Source: Candidatus Saccharimonadota bacterium (GTDB lineage: Bacteria > Patescibacteriota > Saccharimonadia > Saccharimonadales > AWTP1-31). Taken from it: a stretch of DNA of 64,000 nt. The notes below the pieces were generated by a model that worked only from the letters and a program-made list of their open reading frames with translations, ran no database searches and was not told the origin of the DNA. A program made the translations under genes and the position numbers. Location of the stretch: contig JBPOHZ010000008.1 in assembly GCA_052034955.1 (NCBI GenBank), forward strand, positions 27,614-91,613, read 5' to 3'. Positions 3,347-56,563 of this stretch are shown piece by piece; positions within the stretch are counted from its first letter, which is position 1; the number at the start of each line of letters is the position of its first letter.

Positions 3347-4624
3347 ATGCGTAGAATAAAACGACTATCACGTAAATACACTGCAATCAGCCGCCGAAAT
3401 CTTAGGCGGGTTCATCCCCTAAAGGGCCACCCGCTTGTAATACCAGTATTATCTTTTCTGGGACTTTTCTTTATATGTGCCGTAGGCCTAGTTATTGGAA
3501 ATGCTCAAACCATTGGTGCTAGCGACTCTCGAATAGTAGAGATATTGGTCGATGGCCAAAGTAGGACAGTTCCAACACGAGCCAAGAATGTAGCCGATCT
3601 GTTGGACCGTTTACAGATTGAAGTTGACAGTCAGGACTTAGTGGAACCCAAGCTTGATACTGCCATCCTTGAAGACAACATGAAGATAACTATCCAGCAG
3701 GCTAGACCAGTCACAATTATTGATGGAGCAAGTGTCAAAACGGTGATCAGTCCACATCAACAGCCACGTACCGTAGTGGAGGATGCCGGTATAAAGCTTT
3801 ATCCGGAAGACGGCATAGAAACTGACGCTCCAGACAATATCACAGCTCAACCAATTTTAGGTGATCAGCTTGTAGTAGACCGTGCTATCCCGGTTAACAT
3901 CAATTTGTATGGAACAAACATTCCAGTTCGTACTAGGGTGAACACGGTCGCCGATTTACTTAATCAGAAGGATATCAAAACACTCGAAGGCGACACGGTT
4001 ATACCGGAACCTCAGGCAAAGCTTACAGCCGACCTTCAAGTATTTGTGGTTCGTAAGGGTAAGCAGGTTGTGACTGTCGAAGAAAAGATCAAAGCCGCCA
4101 CCGAGACTATTGATGACCCGACATTGACGGCTGGAACAACTGTCGTTAAAAACCCTGGTAAGGATGGACGCAAGGTCGTCACCTACGAAATCAAACTAGA
4201 AAATGGCAAAGAGGTTGGACGAAAAGTTCTGCAAACAGTTATCGCTTCTAAGCCAGTCAAGAAAGTTGTGGCCAAAGGAACCAAGGTACTAGTAACCGGA
4301 ACAAGAGGTGATTGGCTCAGGGCTGTTGGAATATCACCAAGTGAATACTACGCCGTAGATTACATAATTGGGCGGGAATCAGGCTGGTGTCCAACTAAAT
4401 GGCAGGGAGAATACGGAGGATGTCCAGCTTATCACGGCGCTCCGGGCTCCGGTATTGGATACGGGCTTTGTCAGGCCACTCCTGGCAACAAGATGTCTAG
4501 TGCTGGTGCTGATTGGGCTTCTAACCCAGTAACTCAGCTAAAATGGTGTACTGGCTATGCTAGGTCAAGGTACGGAAGCTGGCCGGCAGCTTATAAGTTC
4601 TGGCAACAAAATCACTGGTGGTAG
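3347..4624 (+). CDS. Membrane-anchored cell-wall protein of the DUF348/G5 type with a Cys/Trp-rich C-terminal transglycosylase-like domain (YabE/Rpf-like)
   Basis: Basic N-terminal tail plus a TM helix. Repeated beta-rich segments. G5-like stretch GKDGRKVVTYEIKLENGKEV. C-terminal GWCPTKWQGEYGGCP...WCTGYARSRYGSW. Confidence 0.65.
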   Translation: MRRIKRLSRKYTAISRRNLRRVHPLKGHPLVIPVLSFLGLFFICAVGLVIGNAQTIGASDSRIVEILVDGQSRTVPTRAKNVADLLDRLQIEVDSQDLVEPKLDTAILEDNMKITIQQARPVTIIDGASVKTVISPHQQPRTVVEDAGIKLYPEDGIETDAPDNITAQPILGDQLVVDRAIPVNINLYGTNIPVRTRVNTVADLLNQKDIKTLEGDTVIPEPQAKLTADLQVFVVRKGKQVVTVEEKIKAATETIDDPTLTAGTTVVKNPGKDGRKVVTYEIKLENGKEVGRKVLQTVIASKPVKKVVAKGTKVLVTGTRGDWLRAVGISPSEYYAVDYIIGRESGWCPTKWQGEYGGCPAYHGAPGSGIGYGLCQATPGNKMSSAGADWASNPVTQLKWCTGYARSRYGSWPAAYKFWQQNHWW

Positions 4625-9985: not shown

Positions 9986-10398
9986 GGGGCTGAATTTTAA
10001 GCTCGACGTTGGACTTTAACAGACTTTAATGGCAGGCCGGATTGATCTACACGTTAGCTGGATCAAAATTATAGTTGCAGAAAAATCTACAGCTCGCGGA
10101 TCTCTAATTAAAGAACTAGCTGCAAAGCTTGTTCCTAATTCAGAGTTCGCACTAGCAGCCTAATTTAATTAGACTGCCGCTTCATAAGTGACATCAGATA
10201 ATTTATGTCAGCGCTATATACTTCTGATTGCTCCAGACTTATTTGCCCATAAGTTTGGCTAAGCCTTAGGGCTGCAGCCATTACATTTTTTGTTTGTTTA
10301 CACTGTTTTGGCTAAAGAAACATCCAAACAAACTAAGCCTGTAGTCATAAAGCCATGTTAACTGACGGACGCGGGGGCAGTACCCGCCAGCTCCACCA
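9986..10398 (+). ncRNA. ssrA: tmRNA (SsrA)
   Basis: 5' GGGGCUGA pairs with 3' CAGCUCC-A-CCA, including the G3:U wobble. T-stem is GCGGG/CCCGC. An internal tag reading frame ends ...NSEFALAA-TAA (stop 10161-10163). An intrinsic terminator follows. The resume codon is uncertain. Confidence 0.9.
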
Positions 10399-16548: not shown

Positions 16549-16917
16549 ATGATTCAGAAATTTATAAAACTTGTAACCGGCACCAGCGCCGAGGAACGTA
16601 GGGCGGAACTTTACCGTAACCTTATTCGTCATGAAGCACGAATTGGCGGTACATTATTTGGACCAGTTCCCGAAGGTGGCAAAAGAGAATTCTTTTGTCT
16701 AGATGAACGTACCTGGATTTGGCATGAAGAGTGGATTGACGCCAATGGACAGCACCGCACCAAGACTACTCGATACGATGTTCGACCAAACGGAATCATT
16801 AAAGCACAAGACGGTACTAACCAGCAGTATGTATCTGATGAAGAAGCTCGACATTTACGTGATGCGGCGATTCTATACCAAAAGCGAATTCGCAGCGATT
16901 TGTATAGTAAAATTTAG
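16549..16917 (+). CDS. Hypothetical protein
   Basis: 122-aa ORF lying 2 nt after the previous stop. No motif recognised. Confidence 0.45.
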   Translation: MIQKFIKLVTGTSAEERRAELYRNLIRHEARIGGTLFGPVPEGGKREFFCLDERTWIWHEEWIDANGQHRTKTTRYDVRPNGIIKAQDGTNQQYVSDEEARHLRDAAILYQKRIRSDLYSKI

Positions 16918-20272: not shown

Positions 20273-20337
20273 AAGATAATTGACACAAATACAAAAATAA
20301 TATATCGTATTCAATGACTATTAAGTCATACGTTGAT

Positions 20338-20392
20338 CTGCATATCTGTATTTGGTCGCTTGGATAAGCAGGGAGTAAGTAGCGAAACCGGG
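20338..20392 (+). promoter_or_regulatory. Candidate cis-regulatory pseudoknot RNA, copy D
   Basis: P1 is CUGCAUAUC/GAUAAGCAG. The loop carries GGUCGCU, complementary to the downstream AGCGA-AA-CC. A TTGACA box lies at 20280-20285. The RBS-sequestering hairpin UCUCUAUC/GAUAGGAGA (20424-20446) precedes ATG 20452. Confidence 0.6.
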
Positions 20393-20451
20393 ACGAATCT
20401 CTCTTGAATACAAGTTTGTTCGATCTCTATCAATTAAGATAGGAGACCTTT

Positions 20452-44400: not shown

Positions 44401-44430
44401 TTGACAACGCTAGTCAATAGGATATAAAAT
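44401..44430 (+). promoter_or_regulatory. Sigma70-like promoter for RNA copy A
   Basis: TTGACA (44401-44406), then a 16-18 nt spacer, then TATAAAAT (44423-44430). Confidence 0.55.
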
Positions 44431-44469
44431 ACTATTACTACTAAGTCTATTTGTTGTGTAGGCATCGAT

Positions 44470-44521
44470 ACCTCGCACTAATCTGGACGCTTGTGAAAGG
44501 TTGAGCCAATAGCGTAACCGG
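44470..44521 (+). promoter_or_regulatory. Candidate cis-regulatory pseudoknot RNA, copy A
   Basis: P1 is ACCUCGCAC/GUGAAAGGU (7 of 9 positions paired). The loop carries GGACGCU (44485-44491), complementary to AGCGU-AA-CC (44511-44519). Confidence 0.6.
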
Positions 44522-44546
44522 ACCTTCAAGTAGACGAAGTGGTGTT

Positions 44547-44579
44547 CCCCGGGCAGAGATGTCCGGGGTTTTTGTTTTG
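44547..44579 (+). terminator. Intrinsic terminator following RNA copy A
   Basis: Stem CCCCGG/CCGGGG with a 10-nt loop, followed by TTTTTGTTTT. Confidence 0.8.
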
Positions 44580-44594
44580 TATAGAACCAGGTAA

Positions 44595-44623
44595 TTGACA
44601 AATAATAAACAAAGTCGTAAAAT
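44595..44623 (+). promoter_or_regulatory. Sigma70-like promoter for RNA copy B and gene 44763
   Basis: TTGACA, a 17-nt spacer, then TAAAAT. Confidence 0.6.
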
Positions 44624-44660
44624 ATGACTAATCAAAGCAATTTGGTTGTCGACTAAGAAG

Positions 44661-44712
44661 CAGTACTCGTATTTGGACGCTTGAGTATTGTGGAGTCACT
44701 AGCGTAACCGGG
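44661..44712 (+). promoter_or_regulatory. Candidate cis-regulatory pseudoknot RNA, copy B
   Basis: P1 is CAGUACUCG/UGAGUAUUG (9 bp, 2 G-U). Loop GGACGCU (44675-44681) is complementary to AGCGU-AA-CC (44701-44709). An RBS-sequestering hairpin lies at 44741-44759. Confidence 0.6.
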
Positions 44713-44762
44713 CAACAAGCTACTCTATTGAGTATCTCGAGCTCTTATAAATAAGGAGCAAT

Positions 44763-46163
44763 ATGAATCACGAAAGATTAGTCGGCAGCTTGCTTGCCGT
44801 AGGAATGCTGGCGTCTACACTTGCGCCACAAGATACAAGTGAATTTCAAGTTATAGCTAAAACCGAAGATGTCACTCAACAAGTAGGTAGTATAGCTTGC
44901 ACTATAAATGAATCGGCTGGACTGCATGGCTATCCAATACCATTTTTAATAGATAGGGCATATGCCCATCCCGACCCAGGTGCATTAGTCAAAAAACCCA
45001 GTGAAGAAGTCGAAGATTATGTAACGGCTGAAGAATTGATTTCCGATTTAGATTATCGTCTTCCATTTCCTTTAAAGTCTTCTGAGATAAGTGATACTCC
45101 AAGTCATATGTATCGAGAAAACATTAAAAACGTAGTAGCTGATCTCGCCAGGGATCTAGAAGGCCTGCCTTTATCGTTTATAGAAAGAGGATTTATACAG
45201 GGAATTGCCTTTCGAACAGAGTTAAGAGATGAAAATGACGAAGTTGTTTCATCATTATTTGGTGATGATGGAATACTAAGACTCAATATGACATTGCCAA
45301 GCGATAAATACGGCGAAATGTATTTCGGACCAAAAGCAATGTGGCAAGGAATTTTAAAAGAAGCGGGTCTAGCTGATTGCGATGAGTATAAACGACTTAT
45401 GGAACTAGACACAGAGTTTATGACATTTGGTGGTGACGCCTCTCGTTATGTCGATCGAGTTCTTCCACACAAGGATGTTCGAGATGTTGCTCTTGATATG
45501 CTTCGAATGGGTGCCGGATTCGATGAAGCATGGGACTACTTTGAAGAGCATACCCAGCTGGTATTGCTTGATAATTCCGAAAACTTAGATAGTACTGCAG
45601 ATAAGAATTTTAGAAAGGTACTATCTATTGTTAATGGCATCGATCCAAAACTCAGTCGACAGTTACTAGGCGCTGCTATGCAAAATGGAGATGATAGAAA
45701 AATAGATACACTTCGTGAGACTGAAAAACTTTGGCGTCGTTGGGCTAGCGAAAGGGCACTTCGACAATACCTTGGATATGATAAGCCGGAGATTGATGAT
45801 ATGGAACCTATCTATCCAGCATCCAGAGCAATTGATTCGGATGGTGAGTTAGATTTGCCATACATTGATGTACCAGTTGGGGAGTATACCGTTGGAGTCA
45901 GATTCGACCATCAACGAGAACGTTTATACTCGATTGTAAGCGGCGTTGGTGTCGGAGAATGGGGAACTATCGAACAAAATATAGCTAGCCGTGAATTTGA
46001 TGAACTATATGTTCGGGCTGCATTTTCACAGATACTCGGAGTAGCCCCAGAAGAACTTGTGCTTGAAGAATTTGTTTCGACTAGAGAAGACGGATATAGT
46101 GATCGAGCTATAGCAGTTGATGCAACTGATTGGGAAGGTTTTAGCAAGATTGTCGAGAAATAA
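44763..46163 (+). CDS. Hypothetical secreted protein
   Basis: 466-aa ORF with AAGGAG 6 nt upstream and an N-terminal signal-like LVGSLLAVGMLASTLAP. No known motif recognised. Confidence 0.65.
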   Translation: MNHERLVGSLLAVGMLASTLAPQDTSEFQVIAKTEDVTQQVGSIACTINESAGLHGYPIPFLIDRAYAHPDPGALVKKPSEEVEDYVTAEELISDLDYRLPFPLKSSEISDTPSHMYRENIKNVVADLARDLEGLPLSFIERGFIQGIAFRTELRDENDEVVSSLFGDDGILRLNMTLPSDKYGEMYFGPKAMWQGILKEAGLADCDEYKRLMELDTEFMTFGGDASRYVDRVLPHKDVRDVALDMLRMGAGFDEAWDYFEEHTQLVLLDNSENLDSTADKNFRKVLSIVNGIDPKLSRQLLGAAMQNGDDRKIDTLRETEKLWRRWASERALRQYLGYDKPEIDDMEPIYPASRAIDSDGELDLPYIDVPVGEYTVGVRFDHQRERLYSIVSGVGVGEWGTIEQNIASREFDELYVRAAFSQILGVAPEELVLEEFVSTREDGYSDRAIAVDATDWEGFSKIVEK

Positions 46164-46274
46164 CACAACACTTTCTATCTAATAAGTATATATTTTAGAT
46201 AACTTTGTTGACAAATATCAAACTTACGTAGTACGCTTAAATCAATCAAAGCAATTTGGTTGTAGACAATGAAA

Positions 46275-46326
46275 CAATACTCGTATTTGGACGCTTGAGT
46301 ATTGCGGAGTCAGTAGCGTAACCGGG
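46275..46326 (+). promoter_or_regulatory. Candidate cis-regulatory pseudoknot RNA, copy C
   Basis: P1 is CAAUACUCG/UGAGUAUUG. The G-to-A change relative to copy B converts a G-U pair into A-U. GGACGCU is complementary to AGCGU-AA-CC. TTGACA lies at 46208-46213. Confidence 0.6.
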
Positions 46327-46352
46327 CAACGAAAAACTAATCTCATATAAGA

Positions 46353-46389
46353 GCGGTTTGGCCCATACGCCAAGCCGCTTTTGATTTTT
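46353..46389 (+). terminator. Intrinsic terminator following RNA copy C
   Basis: Stem GCGGTTTGGC/GCCAAGCCGC (one G-U), loop CCATAC, then TTTTGATTTTT. Confidence 0.75.
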
Positions 46390-46454
46390 ATAAACAAGCT
46401 AGAAACCTTGGTGAGGGGTGTTTTCTGCTGCCTAAAAACTGGAAGGCTTTGAAA

Positions 46455-49331
46455 ATGAAACATTTTAATGATGGTATGCCGTCTGCCGACTCTGCGGAGT
46501 TAGAGGCTATTTTGACTTACGTTAGGCGTGACGATGAACCGCTTTTCTGTGATCCAAATTCCATTCCTGGCCCCGACGAAATTATGCAAGAGCTGGGCAT
46601 TGACGAGGTGACGATTCCACGAATGCCTCGACTAAGAGCTGACCAACGATTTGATTATGAATCAACTAGGACTTTATCAGCAAGGGATGTGGGGGCGCGT
46701 CGTTTGCCTAGTAATGCCACCGTAGTTAGGGATAAAGATGGACAGTTCCGAGTAGACTTTAGGGTTGACCCCATGAGTCCAGCGAATATCGTGCGAACTC
46801 AAGCCGCTCTTACGGGGATGTTTGGACGTGCGGCTAGCGAAGCATTAGTTAACCCATCGGTTCAAAAAGAAGTAGATCCTCGTGATCGTCCCAATCCTCT
46901 TCCGCCGGGTTCTGTAAAAACTCTAGACGAATATATGCGGGAAGCGGTGGTATTTGGGGCTGATGCCCTACAAGAACGTAAAGACGAAGTGCGTTCAGTA
47001 GTTGCTGCAAGTGTCATAGCTGGTGTGTTGATGACCGGTACACCCCAGATTAGTGCGCCATCAAGACCTGCAGCTGTGTCGGCTCAGCCAGCGAAGCGAG
47101 CAGGCGAATCTCCGAAGGATATGAAATCAAAGGAATCCACTGATCCAGTAGAACGTGTACTTCCGATTAGCCTGGTTTCCGCAAGTTACGTGCCAAAAAA
47201 ACCGACACATTTGCGCGCAGTCGCTATTGCATTGGGTGTTCCAACAAAGCAAATTAAGGCAGCTAACCCTCATCTTGATCCAAAAGCAGAAATTCCTGCT
47301 GGAACAGTTATAAATGCCGAAGTTAAAACCTCATCGCTGACTATAGATGAGTCAATGCCCGTTGGCTCTGTTGCAAGGGCATTTGGTTTGACTGACGATG
47401 CTGTACTAAGCGTTAATGAACCTAACCAAGATGGACTTCTTCAGGGACGAATAAATATTCCCCGAACGCTAGTCAAGTTAGATGACGGAATGAGGCCTAA
47501 TATTGGAGCAGTGGCAAAAGAATATGGACTTGGCCCCGATCAGGCCCGTGATCTCCATTATGCCAATAATCACACTCCTGCCGGTATTCTGGTTTTGCCG
47601 GTCAATACCGAGATTGGCGATCATCCAGATGCCGTTAATCAGCTGGTCGCCATTGCTCAGTCAGAAAGCGAAGTTATAGATACTCCGGCAATAGTTGTTC
47701 CCGATGCAACGGTTCCTGTTGACAACCCTCCCGCCGAACCACCGATTGTCGAGACTCCACCTGCTGAACCAGCGGTAGTTGAAGCGCCGCCGGTTGTCGA
47801 GACTCCTCCCGCCGAACCGGTAGAGACTACCGTTCCACCGGTCTCCGATCCCGAGTCTACGCAACTAGACAACACGTCAACTACCTTACCTACTGCCGAA
47901 CCGCCAGTTATCGAAACACCGCCCGCCGAACCGCCGGTAGTCGAAACACCGCCGGTTGTCGAGACTCCTCCCGCCGAACCAGCGGTAGTTGAAGCGCCGC
48001 CGGTAGTCGAGACTCCACCCGCCGAACCGCCAGTTCAGCCTCCAGTACCAACCGGTGCTCCCGATGTCTTTGCATCACAGCGGGATAACCCGAGTATGGG
48101 CGAAAGACCGAATGGTAAGCCGATCAACTCTACAAATACCTGTAACATAACTTCGTTAACCATGGCGCTTCAGGGGCTAGGCTTGCTCCAGGGTGTGGCA
48201 GATGGTGCGCAGCCTGAACAGCTGGTGGTTTTGAAATACTTGAGTGATCTCGCCAAAAAAGGTCGTGATATAACCGATCCATTTACCTTACAAAAACTTG
48301 CTGAGCAATTTGGTGCAAACGGCGAAGTACGTGAGGTGCAGAATAACTTCCTATTCTGGGTGGATCTAAATAATCGACTACTAAACGGTGAGAAGGTAAT
48401 CATGAGCATCTCGGGTCATATAGTTCATGTTAAAGAAATGAATATGATGGGTATCGTCGTCGACGATCCTGCTGGCGCCTCGGTCCTACTTCACAAAGTA
48501 AATGGTCGTTGGGTATCGAGTAGTGATCCGAATATTACCGACCGCTCCGGAACAGAATGGTATGAATTTAGTGCACTCAACAGTAAAAACCCAGCATCAC
48601 CAAATCAACCCGGACAGCCTGGCGACAATCATCTTTGGCCATGGTCAGATGTGGGTGAGTATCAGCACTTTAATTGGGTCTTAACGCTCCGCGGAAATTC
48701 TCCTACGCCTCCACCGGCTCCGCCAGTACCGCCAGTAGCTCCACCAGCCGCAGAAGTACCAGCTCCGGAGCAGCCTCCAGTAGAGACCCAAGCCCCCGTA
48801 ACGGAAGAAGTAGATTATGCAAAACTCGACGCATTACAAAGAAATATTCTACCGGTTACGGCAGGCATACCTGCCGAGTACCTCCCGCTCATTAAGGCTA
48901 GCGAGCACTTTTCGGCCATCCAGCTTGCCGCTCAGATAAAGAACGAGAGTAACTTTAATCCAAATGCCCGAAGCGGTGCTGGGGCTGTTGGCCTTGGACA
49001 GTTTACGAATGGAGCTTGGGATGAAATGGGCAGAAGATATCCTGAGCTCACCAACCCAAATGCCAGTCGTAATGATCCCGTCGAGTCAATTATTCGACAG
49101 CGACTTTATATGGACGATATGTACGATCTTGTTCAGAAGTATTTATCAGAAGGCAAGATAAGCGGCGATCCTATTGAGTTGACCTACGCAGCATACAACG
49201 CCGGGATGGGTAATGTCTTGAAGTACAAGGGTGTCCCACCGTTCAAAGAAACTAAAACATACATCGCACGAAATAAGCAGACAATCATGGAATTCGTCCT
49301 ACAAGTAGCGACGGAAAATCCAGGAATTTAA
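46455..49331 (+). CDS. Large secreted cell-wall-active protein: LysM-like repeats, Pro-rich linkers, Cys/His peptidase-like domain, C-terminal GH23 lytic transglycosylase (SLT)
   Basis: GGAAGG lies 8 nt upstream of ATG 46455. Three LysM-like segments. TCNITSL (Cys codon 48141-48143) and SGHIVHV (His codon 48417-48419). SLT motifs IKNESNFNPNA (Glu codon 48945-48947), GLGQF and AYNAGMGNV. Confidence 0.75.
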   Translation: MKHFNDGMPSADSAELEAILTYVRRDDEPLFCDPNSIPGPDEIMQELGIDEVTIPRMPRLRADQRFDYESTRTLSARDVGARRLPSNATVVRDKDGQFRVDFRVDPMSPANIVRTQAALTGMFGRAASEALVNPSVQKEVDPRDRPNPLPPGSVKTLDEYMREAVVFGADALQERKDEVRSVVAASVIAGVLMTGTPQISAPSRPAAVSAQPAKRAGESPKDMKSKESTDPVERVLPISLVSASYVPKKPTHLRAVAIALGVPTKQIKAANPHLDPKAEIPAGTVINAEVKTSSLTIDESMPVGSVARAFGLTDDAVLSVNEPNQDGLLQGRINIPRTLVKLDDGMRPNIGAVAKEYGLGPDQARDLHYANNHTPAGILVLPVNTEIGDHPDAVNQLVAIAQSESEVIDTPAIVVPDATVPVDNPPAEPPIVETPPAEPAVVEAPPVVETPPAEPVETTVPPVSDPESTQLDNTSTTLPTAEPPVIETPPAEPPVVETPPVVETPPAEPAVVEAPPVVETPPAEPPVQPPVPTGAPDVFASQRDNPSMGERPNGKPINSTNTCNITSLTMALQGLGLLQGVADGAQPEQLVVLKYLSDLAKKGRDITDPFTLQKLAEQFGANGEVREVQNNFLFWVDLNNRLLNGEKVIMSISGHIVHVKEMNMMGIVVDDPAGASVLLHKVNGRWVSSSDPNITDRSGTEWYEFSALNSKNPASPNQPGQPGDNHLWPWSDVGEYQHFNWVLTLRGNSPTPPPAPPVPPVAPPAAEVPAPEQPPVETQAPVTEEVDYAKLDALQRNILPVTAGIPAEYLPLIKASEHFSAIQLAAQIKNESNFNPNARSGAGAVGLGQFTNGAWDEMGRRYPELTNPNASRNDPVESIIRQRLYMDDMYDLVQKYLSEGKISGDPIELTYAAYNAGMGNVLKYKGVPPFKETKTYIARNKQTIMEFVLQVATENPGI
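47728..48055 (+). repeat. Pro-rich tandem repeat region (V/I)ETPPAEP(P/A)VV containing long duplicated DNA blocks
   Basis: GTTGTCGAGACTCCTCCCGCCGAACC and GAACCAGCGGTAGTTGAAGCGCCGCCGG each occur twice, about 200 nt apart. Confidence 0.85.
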
Positions 49332-50345: not shown

Positions 50346-51851
50346 GTGAATCAACAGCTATCAGAAAAACTAAAGTCACTACCCAAAGAACCGGGCGTCT
50401 ACTTTCATAAAAGTAAAACAGGCGAGATTATTTATGTTGGCAAAGCGGCCATACTTCGAAATCGGGTAAGACAGTATTTTCAGAAATCTAGGACACGAGA
50501 TCCCAAAACCGATCTTTTAGTCGCAGAAATACACGATACCGATTGGCAAGTAGTAGACAGCGAATTTGAGGCCCTATTCCTGGAAGCCGAGATGATCCGT
50601 CGCTACATGCCAAGGTATAATATTTTACTTCGCGACGACAAAAGTCAGACTTTTGTGCGGATCGACTTTAAGCAGCAATATCCGTCAGTTACTACCACTC
50701 GTCGACCGTTGGACGATGGAGCAACTTATTATGGCCCGTTCCTGAGCACGATTGCCGTGCGTCGAGCCTTAAAATATTTGCGAAAAATTTTCCCATATTC
50801 AACCCATACTACCTTGCCGTCACGAGCCTGTTTGCTGGTGCACCTGCATTTATGCCCCGGCCCAGAAACCGGCGAGTTAGACGAAAAAGGGTACAAGTCT
50901 AGCCTTCGCAAATTGGTACGAGTTATCGAGGGCCACAAAGGTTCAATCGTAAAAGAGCTCGAAAAAGATATGAAAGTAGCATCTAAGGCTGCCGATTTTG
51001 AGCAAGCTGCCAAAATCCGTGACCAAATTACCGACCTTAACGACCTAGATAAGCGAGTACTGTTTAGTGACAAAGAATTTATGGACCTGTCCAAAGATCA
51101 TGCTTTGGTAGATCTAACGGATTTGCTTGGGCTTTTAAAAGTACCACGCCGCATAGAAGGATATGACATTAGTCATATGTCTGGAACAGATGTAGTCGCC
51201 AGTATGGTGGTCTTTAGTAACGGAGCTGCCGACAAATCAAATTATCGTAAGTTCAAATCTCGCATGCAGAACAATGACGACTTCGAACACATGCGCGAAA
51301 CCATGACTCGACGCTTTAGCGAGAAGAATATTAAAGCTTGGGGAAAGCCCGATTTATTATTAATCGACGGTGGCAAGGGGCAGCTCGAAGCGGCGTTAGG
51401 AGTGCTCCGCGAAAAAAATATTCAAATTCCAGCGATCGGAATCGCCAAAAAGCATGAAGAGATTGTAGTCCGAAATGACTGGCCATTTACTAAACTTCAA
51501 CCAACCGTTGTCTTAAAGCAAAGAGGCTTTAGTCGAGTAAGCGATGATTTTACGCTTGTAGACCTACCCAACAATAGTAATGTCGTAAAACTACTTCAAC
51601 GAATTCGTGACGAGTCTCACCGTTTTGCAGTCAGCTACCACTCAGTTTTAAAAGTTAAAAGACAGACAGCCAGCATTTTGGATGACGTTCCAGGTATTGG
51701 GCCACTAACACGGAAGAAACTGATCCGTACATTTGGAAGTTTACGAGGAGTCCAGCAAGCTCGACAAATAGAGCTCGAAAAGATCCTTGGCGAGAAGAAA
51801 GCCACCGTGCTCAGGCAGTATTTAAGAGCTGCCAAAAAAGAAGAGTTATAA
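50346..51851 (+). CDS. uvrC: Excinuclease ABC subunit C
   Basis: 501 aa. GIY-YIG (GVYFHK...IIYVGKA...YF), UVR-like region (FEQAAKIRDQI), endonuclease domain, and C-terminal HhH (GIGPLTRKKLIRTFGS). GTG start lies 6 nt after TATAAT. Confidence 0.9.
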   Translation: MNQQLSEKLKSLPKEPGVYFHKSKTGEIIYVGKAAILRNRVRQYFQKSRTRDPKTDLLVAEIHDTDWQVVDSEFEALFLEAEMIRRYMPRYNILLRDDKSQTFVRIDFKQQYPSVTTTRRPLDDGATYYGPFLSTIAVRRALKYLRKIFPYSTHTTLPSRACLLVHLHLCPGPETGELDEKGYKSSLRKLVRVIEGHKGSIVKELEKDMKVASKAADFEQAAKIRDQITDLNDLDKRVLFSDKEFMDLSKDHALVDLTDLLGLLKVPRRIEGYDISHMSGTDVVASMVVFSNGAADKSNYRKFKSRMQNNDDFEHMRETMTRRFSEKNIKAWGKPDLLLIDGGKGQLEAALGVLREKNIQIPAIGIAKKHEEIVVRNDWPFTKLQPTVVLKQRGFSRVSDDFTLVDLPNNSNVVKLLQRIRDESHRFAVSYHSVLKVKRQTASILDDVPGIGPLTRKKLIRTFGSLRGVQQARQIELEKILGEKKATVLRQYLRAAKKEEL

Positions 51852-56476: not shown

Positions 56477-56563
56477 GCCGCGATGGCGGAATTGGTAGAC
56501 GCGCTAGCTTCAGGAGTTAGTGGGGGTAACCCCGTGGAGGTTCAAGTCCTCTTCGCGGCACCA
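56477..56563 (+). tRNA. tRNA-Leu (anticodon CAG), type II with a long variable arm and encoded CCA
   Basis: Acceptor GCCGCGA/TCGCGGC. Anticodon stem CTAGC/GTTAG with loop TTCAGGA. Variable arm GGGG-TAA-CCCC. T arm GGAGG-TTCAAGT-CCTCT. Confidence 0.93.

Follow-up and report, generated by a model that had tools for sequence, protein, structure and literature searches.

The segment at positions 46208-46454 of the window (the whole 64-kb stretch of Saccharibacteria DNA analysed here) would represent a complete leader, in which a sigma-70-type promoter, a class II c-di-GMP aptamer and an antiterminator/terminator platform are combined to control the gene that follows, here called gene 2 (46455-49331). 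Taken as a whole, including the prediction that the ligand switches gene 2 OFF, this explanation appears fairly probable to us. The first-pass annotation had proposed that the second gene of the cluster is gated separately by its own element through transcription termination, and all in silico tests agree with this proposal: the promoter, the aptamer, the terminator, the conserved alternative pairing and the clean spacer before the start codon. The identification of the element, designated copy C, with the known c-di-GMP-II riboswitch and the prediction of its OFF polarity go beyond it.

The riboswitch class is already known, and our analysis leaves the knowledge of the class itself unchanged; copy C adds a new member from a phylum for which we found none reported, with a less common, probably OFF-type platform, and provides a concrete and testable entry into the signalling and gene control of Saccharibacteria. 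To our knowledge, regulation in Patescibacteria/CPR is almost unexplored, and no report of natural riboswitches or of c-di-GMP riboswitches in Saccharibacteria/CPR was found in the literature searched (its coverage being incomplete, with the Rfam full hit lists outside its scope). Genes 1 and 2, as well as copies A, B and C of the aptamer with all their elements, are located on the + strand.

The aptamer of copy C and its paralogues

The c-di-GMP-II aptamer of copy C occupies positions 46253-46336, and its P1 helix is formed by 46255-46263 with 46326-46334. It matches the Rfam family RF01786, which is its best match in the clan, over the full length of the model (positions 1-84 of 84), with 63.3 bits against a gathering score of 53.5 and an E value of 9.2e-12 for the 64-kb window. 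The score rises to 93 bits with R1, a local covariance model for which seven Saccharibacteria copies served as the input. All strongly conserved consensus positions of RF01786 are either matched or changed in a compensatory manner, and the Rfam alignment shows that the unpaired core nucleotides UGA, GAG, AGU and AACCG are all present.

The c-di-GMP-II family was reportedly described by Lee et al. in 2010. Copy C shares with it the three helices, the pseudoknot between the loop and the 3' strand and the conserved unpaired nucleotides, while it differs in its host, a member of Saccharibacteria, and in the composition of the pseudoknot (ACGC/GCGU instead of GCAC/GUGC). The pseudoknot (46289-46323) is formed by the loop GGACGC (46289-46294) with GCGU (46316-46319) and CC (46322-46323), the AA at 46320-46321 being bulged; compared with the Rfam consensus GGGCAC/GUGC, both differing pairs are compensatory. 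The ACGC/GCGU variant is common in metagenomes, where it occurs in more than 120 contigs among the matches listed.

Covariation was assessed in the seven Saccharibacteria copies, in which 84.5% of the cells in the three helices and the pseudoknot are paired, compared with 30-39% for slid partners, and double-sided changes occur in 16 pairs. P2 is 100% paired, with double changes in two of its three pairs; the hairpin stem is 89% paired, with double changes in all eight pairs; P1 is 68% paired, and its outer pairs are weak. The pseudoknot keeps six of six pairs in all seven copies and includes one A-U to U-A swap. Since the match is full-length, with an E value of 9.2e-12, and the covariation exceeds that of the slid controls, a genuine riboswitch aptamer is supported, and we have little doubt that copy C belongs to class II. 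We infer that copy C would bind c-di-GMP; which core nucleotides would touch it is taken from the published structure of the class, obtained for the C. acetobutylicum aptamer (PDB 3Q3Z, cited in PMC7583470).

Two other assignments of the aptamer were rejected. A putative new variant of the ligand site (“GUA” for the consensus “GCA” after the pseudoknot) turned out to be a compensatory pseudoknot pair. The c-di-GMP-II-GAG variant RF03169, which has GAG for GCA after the pseudoknot strand (consensus GGCGAGACCG), was ruled out: copy C has GCGUAACCG there, and its AA is that of the standard class.

The window contains four class II aptamer copies (A, B, C and a fourth one). Copy B (44595-44722), which precedes gene 1 (44763-46163), comprises a promoter (TTGACA, a 17-nt spacer and TAAAAT) and an aptamer at 44639-44722 that scores 56.0 bits with RF01786. 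The earlier description of copy C as a paralogue of copy B is well founded: the repeat search revealed 92% identity over 87 ungapped nucleotides (46244-46330 versus 44630-44716), and over the segments originally compared, 44595-44715 and 46208-46330, 103 of the 124 aligned positions are identical (83%). Between the 84-nt aptamer cores, identity is 73/84. A G-to-A change that had been noted between the two copies is real (46277, aptamer position 25) and converts G25-U50 into A25-U50 in the Rfam-hit alignments, but its placement in P1 was mistaken, because it lies in the hairpin stem, the third helix of the Rfam model.

The terminator scan found no terminator in copy B, and in the minimum-energy fold a hairpin GCUCUU-AUAAAUA-AGGAGC (44723-44765) covers the ribosome-binding site of gene 1. 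By these folding models, one and the same aptamer type appears to act on translation in the case of copy B, but on termination in that of copy C. Copy A (44401-44578) adjoins the copy B promoter upstream and consists of a promoter, an aptamer at about 44449-44532 and a strong terminator at 44547-44568 with a T-run. It scores 45.3 bits with RF01786, below the gathering score (E value 5e-8 in a 3-kb search), and 73.3 bits with R1. Such an arrangement may point to an orphan riboswitch, but also to a small RNA or an antisense regulator. Its counterpart in the related contig L003 (2675-2860) has the GGC/GCC P2 helix in common with it; both follow a rhodanese-family gene, and only a convergent 643-aa gene stands after the L003 counterpart.

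The fourth aptamer (20317-20402) finds its best Rfam match in the GAG variant RF03169 (41.2 bits, gathering score 40). However, its pseudoknot is followed by AA instead of AG and contains a compensatory U-A pair, and by its sequence we take this copy to be most probably an ordinary aptamer of class II. It is located upstream of two small ORFs of 146 and 87 aa, the latter with a clear hydrophobic stretch, and lacks a terminator, while a hairpin may cover the ribosome-binding site.

The occurrence of several aptamers per locus resembles the tandem c-di-GMP-II arrangements, of which Sherlock et al. described 59 doublets and 9 triplets in 2022 (PMC9481103): in the window, 190 nt separate copy A from copy B, and copy C follows 1.6 kb further. 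The difference is that each copy in the window has its own promoter-like site, and that copy C would control a second gene instead of contributing to the control of gene 1.

Promoter, terminator and predicted switching of the leader

The closest relatives of the uvrC gene (50346-51851) come from Candidatus Saccharibacteria (TM7) metagenome assemblies, with identities of 86% (L001), 83% (L003) and 75% (L002), and they assign the organism to this group. L002 and L003 both have class II aptamers ahead of uvrC that RF01786 detects at the gathering score, and R1 also recovers two copies in L001; no class II aptamer was found by Rfam at the gathering score in more distant Saccharibacteria loci. L001, L002 and L003 each have one copy directly upstream of the orthologue of gene 2, with a promoter and a terminator. 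Because the Rfam E value is 9e-12 in the 64-kb window and this arrangement is kept in three other genomes, copy C cannot be attributed to chance. In L001, a perfect direct repeat was also seen (1-300 and 4239-4538, with a spacing of 4238 nt), which likely extends to about 1420 and 5660 and appears to span a 397-aa ORF, a promoter and an aptamer, so that two identical cassettes precede different genes; it represents either a recent duplication or an assembly artefact.

The promoter-like site of copy C (46208-46237), as read from the sequence, comprises the -35 box TTGACA (46208-46213), an 18-nt spacer and the -10 box TACGCT (46232-46237), and transcription is expected to start near 46244-46246. 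The consensus promoter scan did not call this site, whose -10 hexamer matches only three of six positions. In the four orthologous leaders, TTGACA is invariant and the -10 hexamers follow the TAxxxT pattern at a spacing of 17-18 nt (TACGCT, TACGCT, TAATAT and TATAAT). The first-pass annotation had ascribed to copies B and C the same TTGACA box, the same -10 offset and an identical leader; the box and the 20-nt leader AATCAAAGCAATTTGGTTGT are indeed common to both, while the offset is not, the spacer of copy C being one nucleotide longer than that of copy B (18 versus 17 nt).

The conservation of the 20-nt leader can be explained by a hairpin, AUCAAA-GCAA-UUUGGU (46245-46260), which includes the 5' strand of P1. 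It was revealed in the RNAalifold consensus over the four orthologous leaders together with P2, the hairpin stem and the terminator. Its loop is GCAA or GAAA among the orthologues (GAAA in L002), and in L003 (CCAAAA-AAG-UUUUGG) the pairing is kept while the sequence is changed.

The intrinsic terminator detected by the terminator scan at 46348-46389 consists of a 15-bp stem (46348-46383) with a 6-nt loop and the tail TTTTGATTTTT, which ends at 46389; its folding energy is -23.3 kcal/mol. The ATG of gene 2 at 46455 lies 65 nt past the end of the T-run. The previously proposed terminator (46353-46389, about 65 nt before the gene) is thereby borne out, with a slightly longer stem. It is kept in all four orthologues, where only single-sided changes (G-C to G-U, U-G to U-A) occur.

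The proposed competitor of this terminator was revealed when the leaders were cut before the terminator 3' half: in four of four orthologues, the minimum-energy fold is the same alternative hairpin, in which GGGC at the aptamer 3' edge and the P1 3' strand pair with the terminator 5' half, GGUUUGGCCC. In the window, this predicted antiterminator (46324-46364) includes GGGC 46324-46327/GCCC 46361-46364, AAACU 46334-46338/GGUUU 46355-46359 and UCU/AGA. To AAACU, the P1 3' strand of the window, correspond CAAACC in both L001 and L002 and CAGAACC in L003. The antiterminator energy is -8.1 kcal/mol in copy C (z -1.2 versus shuffles), -12.2 kcal/mol in L001 (z -2.3), -16.4 kcal/mol in L002 (z -3.3) and -13.3 kcal/mol in L003 (z -1.9). 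Its advantage over the P1-enforced state, in which only the inner five P1 pairs were imposed, amounts to 3.6, 6.4, 4.8 and 8.1 kcal/mol, respectively. A ligand with the dissociation constant reported for class II aptamers and c-di-GMP (0.2-2 nM; PMC7583470) could bridge this gap of 3.6-8.1 kcal/mol. The fold of the whole copy C leader has a z of -2.2.

Among the four antiterminators, that of the window is the weakest. The overlap of its inner helix with P1 amounts to only about one base, and the mutual exclusivity therefore rests here mainly on GGGC/GCCC. Since the terminator 5' half and the aptamer 3' end are nearly invariant in the four orthologues, the antiterminator is supported more by conservation than by covariation. 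The terminator stem starts 12 nt past P1 and has no base in common with the aptamer; therefore, a ligand-locked aptamer leaves the terminator free, while an open aptamer competes with it. In silico, the expression platform thus comprises a conserved terminator and a mutually exclusive antiterminator.

We suppose that without the ligand the leader hairpin (46245-46260) would sequester the P1 5' strand, and the P1 3' strand together with GGGC (46324-46338) would then pair with the terminator 5' half (46350-46364), so that the terminator is blocked and RNA polymerase enters gene 2. When c-di-GMP is bound, the pseudoknot and P1 would lock the 3' strand residues, the freed 5' half would form the 15-bp terminator, and transcription would stop near 46385-46389, which makes the leader an OFF switch. 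From the sequence features of copy C, we consider it quite likely that it acts by termination. As for the polarity, the folding models incline us moderately towards OFF. Promoter activity and the functional coupling of the aptamer to its platform are deduced from the same sequence features.

The spacer between the terminator and gene 2 (46390-46454) contains the ribosome-binding site GGAAGG (46441-46446). It has no significant structure (fold z 0.32), so that there is no sign of a second, translational control layer, and on the + strand the consensus scan revealed no promoter-like site from the terminator up to the ATG. As the terminator scan found no terminator between gene 1 and copy C, read-through transcripts from upstream would meet the copy C gate too. 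These observations support termination as the sole control layer.

A long-range helix between the leader (AAUCAAAGC..UUUGG) and the terminator 3' half with the U-tract, or an inverted repeat acting at the DNA level, was also considered and rejected: this complementarity exists because the P1 5' strand and the terminator 5' half both complement the P1 3' strand.

Known class II systems and alternative readings

In C. difficile, the class II switches that have been characterised (type IV pilus operon, CD2831, CD3246 and cmrRST) are transcriptional ON switches (PMC11477304). They share with copy C the aptamer class, the use of transcription termination and the surface or cell-envelope targets (PMC11477304); unlike them, copy C has a separate terminator and an antiterminator formed by the P1 3' strand with the terminator 5' half, which predicts OFF. 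The logic predicted for copy C, in which c-di-GMP favours the terminator and the gene is turned off, is that of the class I (GEMM-I) switches, e.g., the one of C. difficile flgB, which is transcriptional OFF (PMC11477304), although their aptamer fold is unrelated. If the predicted polarity is true, class II aptamers are used in both directions.

To place copy C among other class II leaders, 117 distinct metagenomic aptamers with the same pseudoknot (L041-L160, among the matches listed) were classified by our own heuristic. The ON design, in which the terminator 5' arm overlaps the aptamer AACCG and the P1 3' strand, was seen in 89 of these listed matches (about three quarters), a separate downstream terminator in 13, and 15 were left unclassified, both designs occurring among them. 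The separate terminator, a minority design, is what copy C and its orthologues have, but it is not unique to them. In some of the separate-terminator examples (L127, L145 and L151), the terminator 5' half complements the P1 5' strand; on sequence grounds, this complementarity represents a second way to build an OFF switch. In L066, a metagenomic example of a similar OFF type, the gene that follows is an unrelated orphan, which gives no clue to the regulon.

These comparisons bear on the possibility that the same aptamer works in copy C with the opposite polarity, c-di-GMP promoting read-through as in C. difficile. The ON behaviour of the characterised switches (PMC11477304), the overlapping terminator in 89/117 of the metagenomic examples listed and the weakness of the window antiterminator speak for it, but a ligand-locked aptamer cannot sequester a terminator that begins 12 nt past P1 and shares no base with it. 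Moreover, the only alternative partner found for the terminator 5' half is the P1 3' strand with GGGC, which ligand binding removes, and we therefore regard ON polarity as unlikely. The combination of a very strong terminator (-23.3 kcal/mol) with a weak antiterminator in the window may instead indicate a small RNA of about 145 nt that stands alone, is constitutively terminated and either binds c-di-GMP or ends the gene 1 transcript, gene 2 being expressed otherwise; copy A and its counterpart in L003 resemble orphan units of this kind. This is quite unlikely for copy C, because no promoter-like site exists from the terminator to the ATG, the orthologues have stronger antiterminators, and the cassette stands directly before the orthologous gene in four genomes. 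In L002, a rhodanese-family gene is the only gene on the same strand upstream of the cassette, and in L003, the gene immediately upstream is convergent.

The two remaining alternatives concern the aptamer itself. GEMM-I variants that sense cGAMP exist, and in parallel the class II fold could serve a different nucleotide ligand in Saccharibacteria. This would accord with the existence of a clan of variant motifs (e.g., RF03169) and with the lack of a visible c-di-GMP synthase in the sequences covered (the window and 18 CPR loci, which are a small part of the genomes). However, none of the strongly conserved unpaired nucleotides of RF01786 is missing, the AA bulge and the CCG beside it included; where copy C departs from the consensus, it does so in compensatory pairs, and the best score is obtained with the standard family and not with a variant, so that another ligand appears very unlikely. 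Hardly credible is the view that a local duplication of copy B left copy C behind as a non-functional relic. The 92% identity over 87 nt and the degenerate -10 hexamer TACGCT would fit it, but the differences between the two copies mostly keep the pairing (G-U to A-U), with the loss in copy C of one pair at the base of the hairpin stem (G22-U53 of copy B being changed to A22-C53), and the preservation of the C-type cassette with its terminator in L001, L002 and L003 makes an ancestral unit more likely.

The presumed target genes and c-di-GMP in Saccharibacteria

The OFF switch that we favour would control a gene for a protein of 958 aa. This protein has a hydrophobic segment in its interior, LysM-like repeats, linkers rich in proline and a C39-like domain, and an SLT domain forms its C-terminal part. 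The SLT lytic transglycosylase domain is recognised by Pfam at 4.8e-13, while LysM (7e-4) and Peptidase_C39_2 (0.017) are both below the Pfam cut-offs, and the matches to the NCBIfam lytic transglycosylase models are weak. The previous description of this protein as LysM-like, peptidase-like and SLT-containing is hence reasonable, with a solid SLT part and weak LysM and C39 parts. Its orthologue in L001 (5776-8898) is 40% identical over the N-terminal part and 69% identical over the SLT domain, while the middle region is unrelated; such unlike middles suggest, from the sequences compared, domain swapping in a surface enzyme. The middle region of the window protein includes a segment that resembles C39-like cysteine peptidases.

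Gene 1 encodes a 466-aa orphan without any Pfam or NCBIfam match. An exhaustive search among 1.8 billion representatives found two relatives besides the protein itself, and a word-index search found only itself; a weak similarity also links it with the product of a gene that follows a riboswitch in L001. Its AlphaFold model, built without an alignment, has a pLDDT of 37 and is unusable. Both genes had been called secreted. By inspection only, this suits gene 1, whose N-terminus is signal-peptide-like, and not gene 2, whose product looks membrane-anchored by a hydrophobic segment near residue 185, without an N-terminal signal peptide.

Saccharibacteria live as epibionts on other bacteria. Our data point to c-di-GMP controlling a large cell-wall-degrading surface enzyme, which is a plausible player in this lifestyle. 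The GGDEF, EAL and HD-GYP motifs were absent from the long ORFs of the window (150 aa or more) and of the 18 CPR loci (120 aa or more), sequences that represent small fractions of the genomes; diguanylate cyclases have been reported in ultra-small lineages generally (PMC9938205). One can tentatively propose, with a low probability, that Saccharibacteria have a small c-di-GMP regulon that is served exclusively by class II cassettes with their own promoters: at high c-di-GMP, the OFF units would silence the multi-domain peptidoglycan-cleaving enzyme and fast-evolving secreted proteins, and the orphan units such as copy A would act as small RNAs. If this is true, c-di-GMP could signal whether the epibiont is attached, and its source might even be the host cell. 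In a recent perspective, riboswitches were named as a promising route to inducible expression in Saccharibacteria (PMC11665869), and a native promoter-aptamer-terminator cassette that is kept in several of these bacteria could become a tool for this purpose.

Several other RNAs were noticed in the sequences analysed. A marginal match to Rickettsia sRNA47 in L025 (20239-20380; 62.4 bits, gathering score 60) is probably spurious, while the Saccharibacteria contig L004 carries a LOOT RNA match at 16698-16818 (55.7 bits, gathering score 46.4). The window itself contains a tmRNA gene at 9986-10398, which scores 85 bits and has a large insertion relative to the Rfam model, and a tRNA with a long variable arm at 56477-56560.
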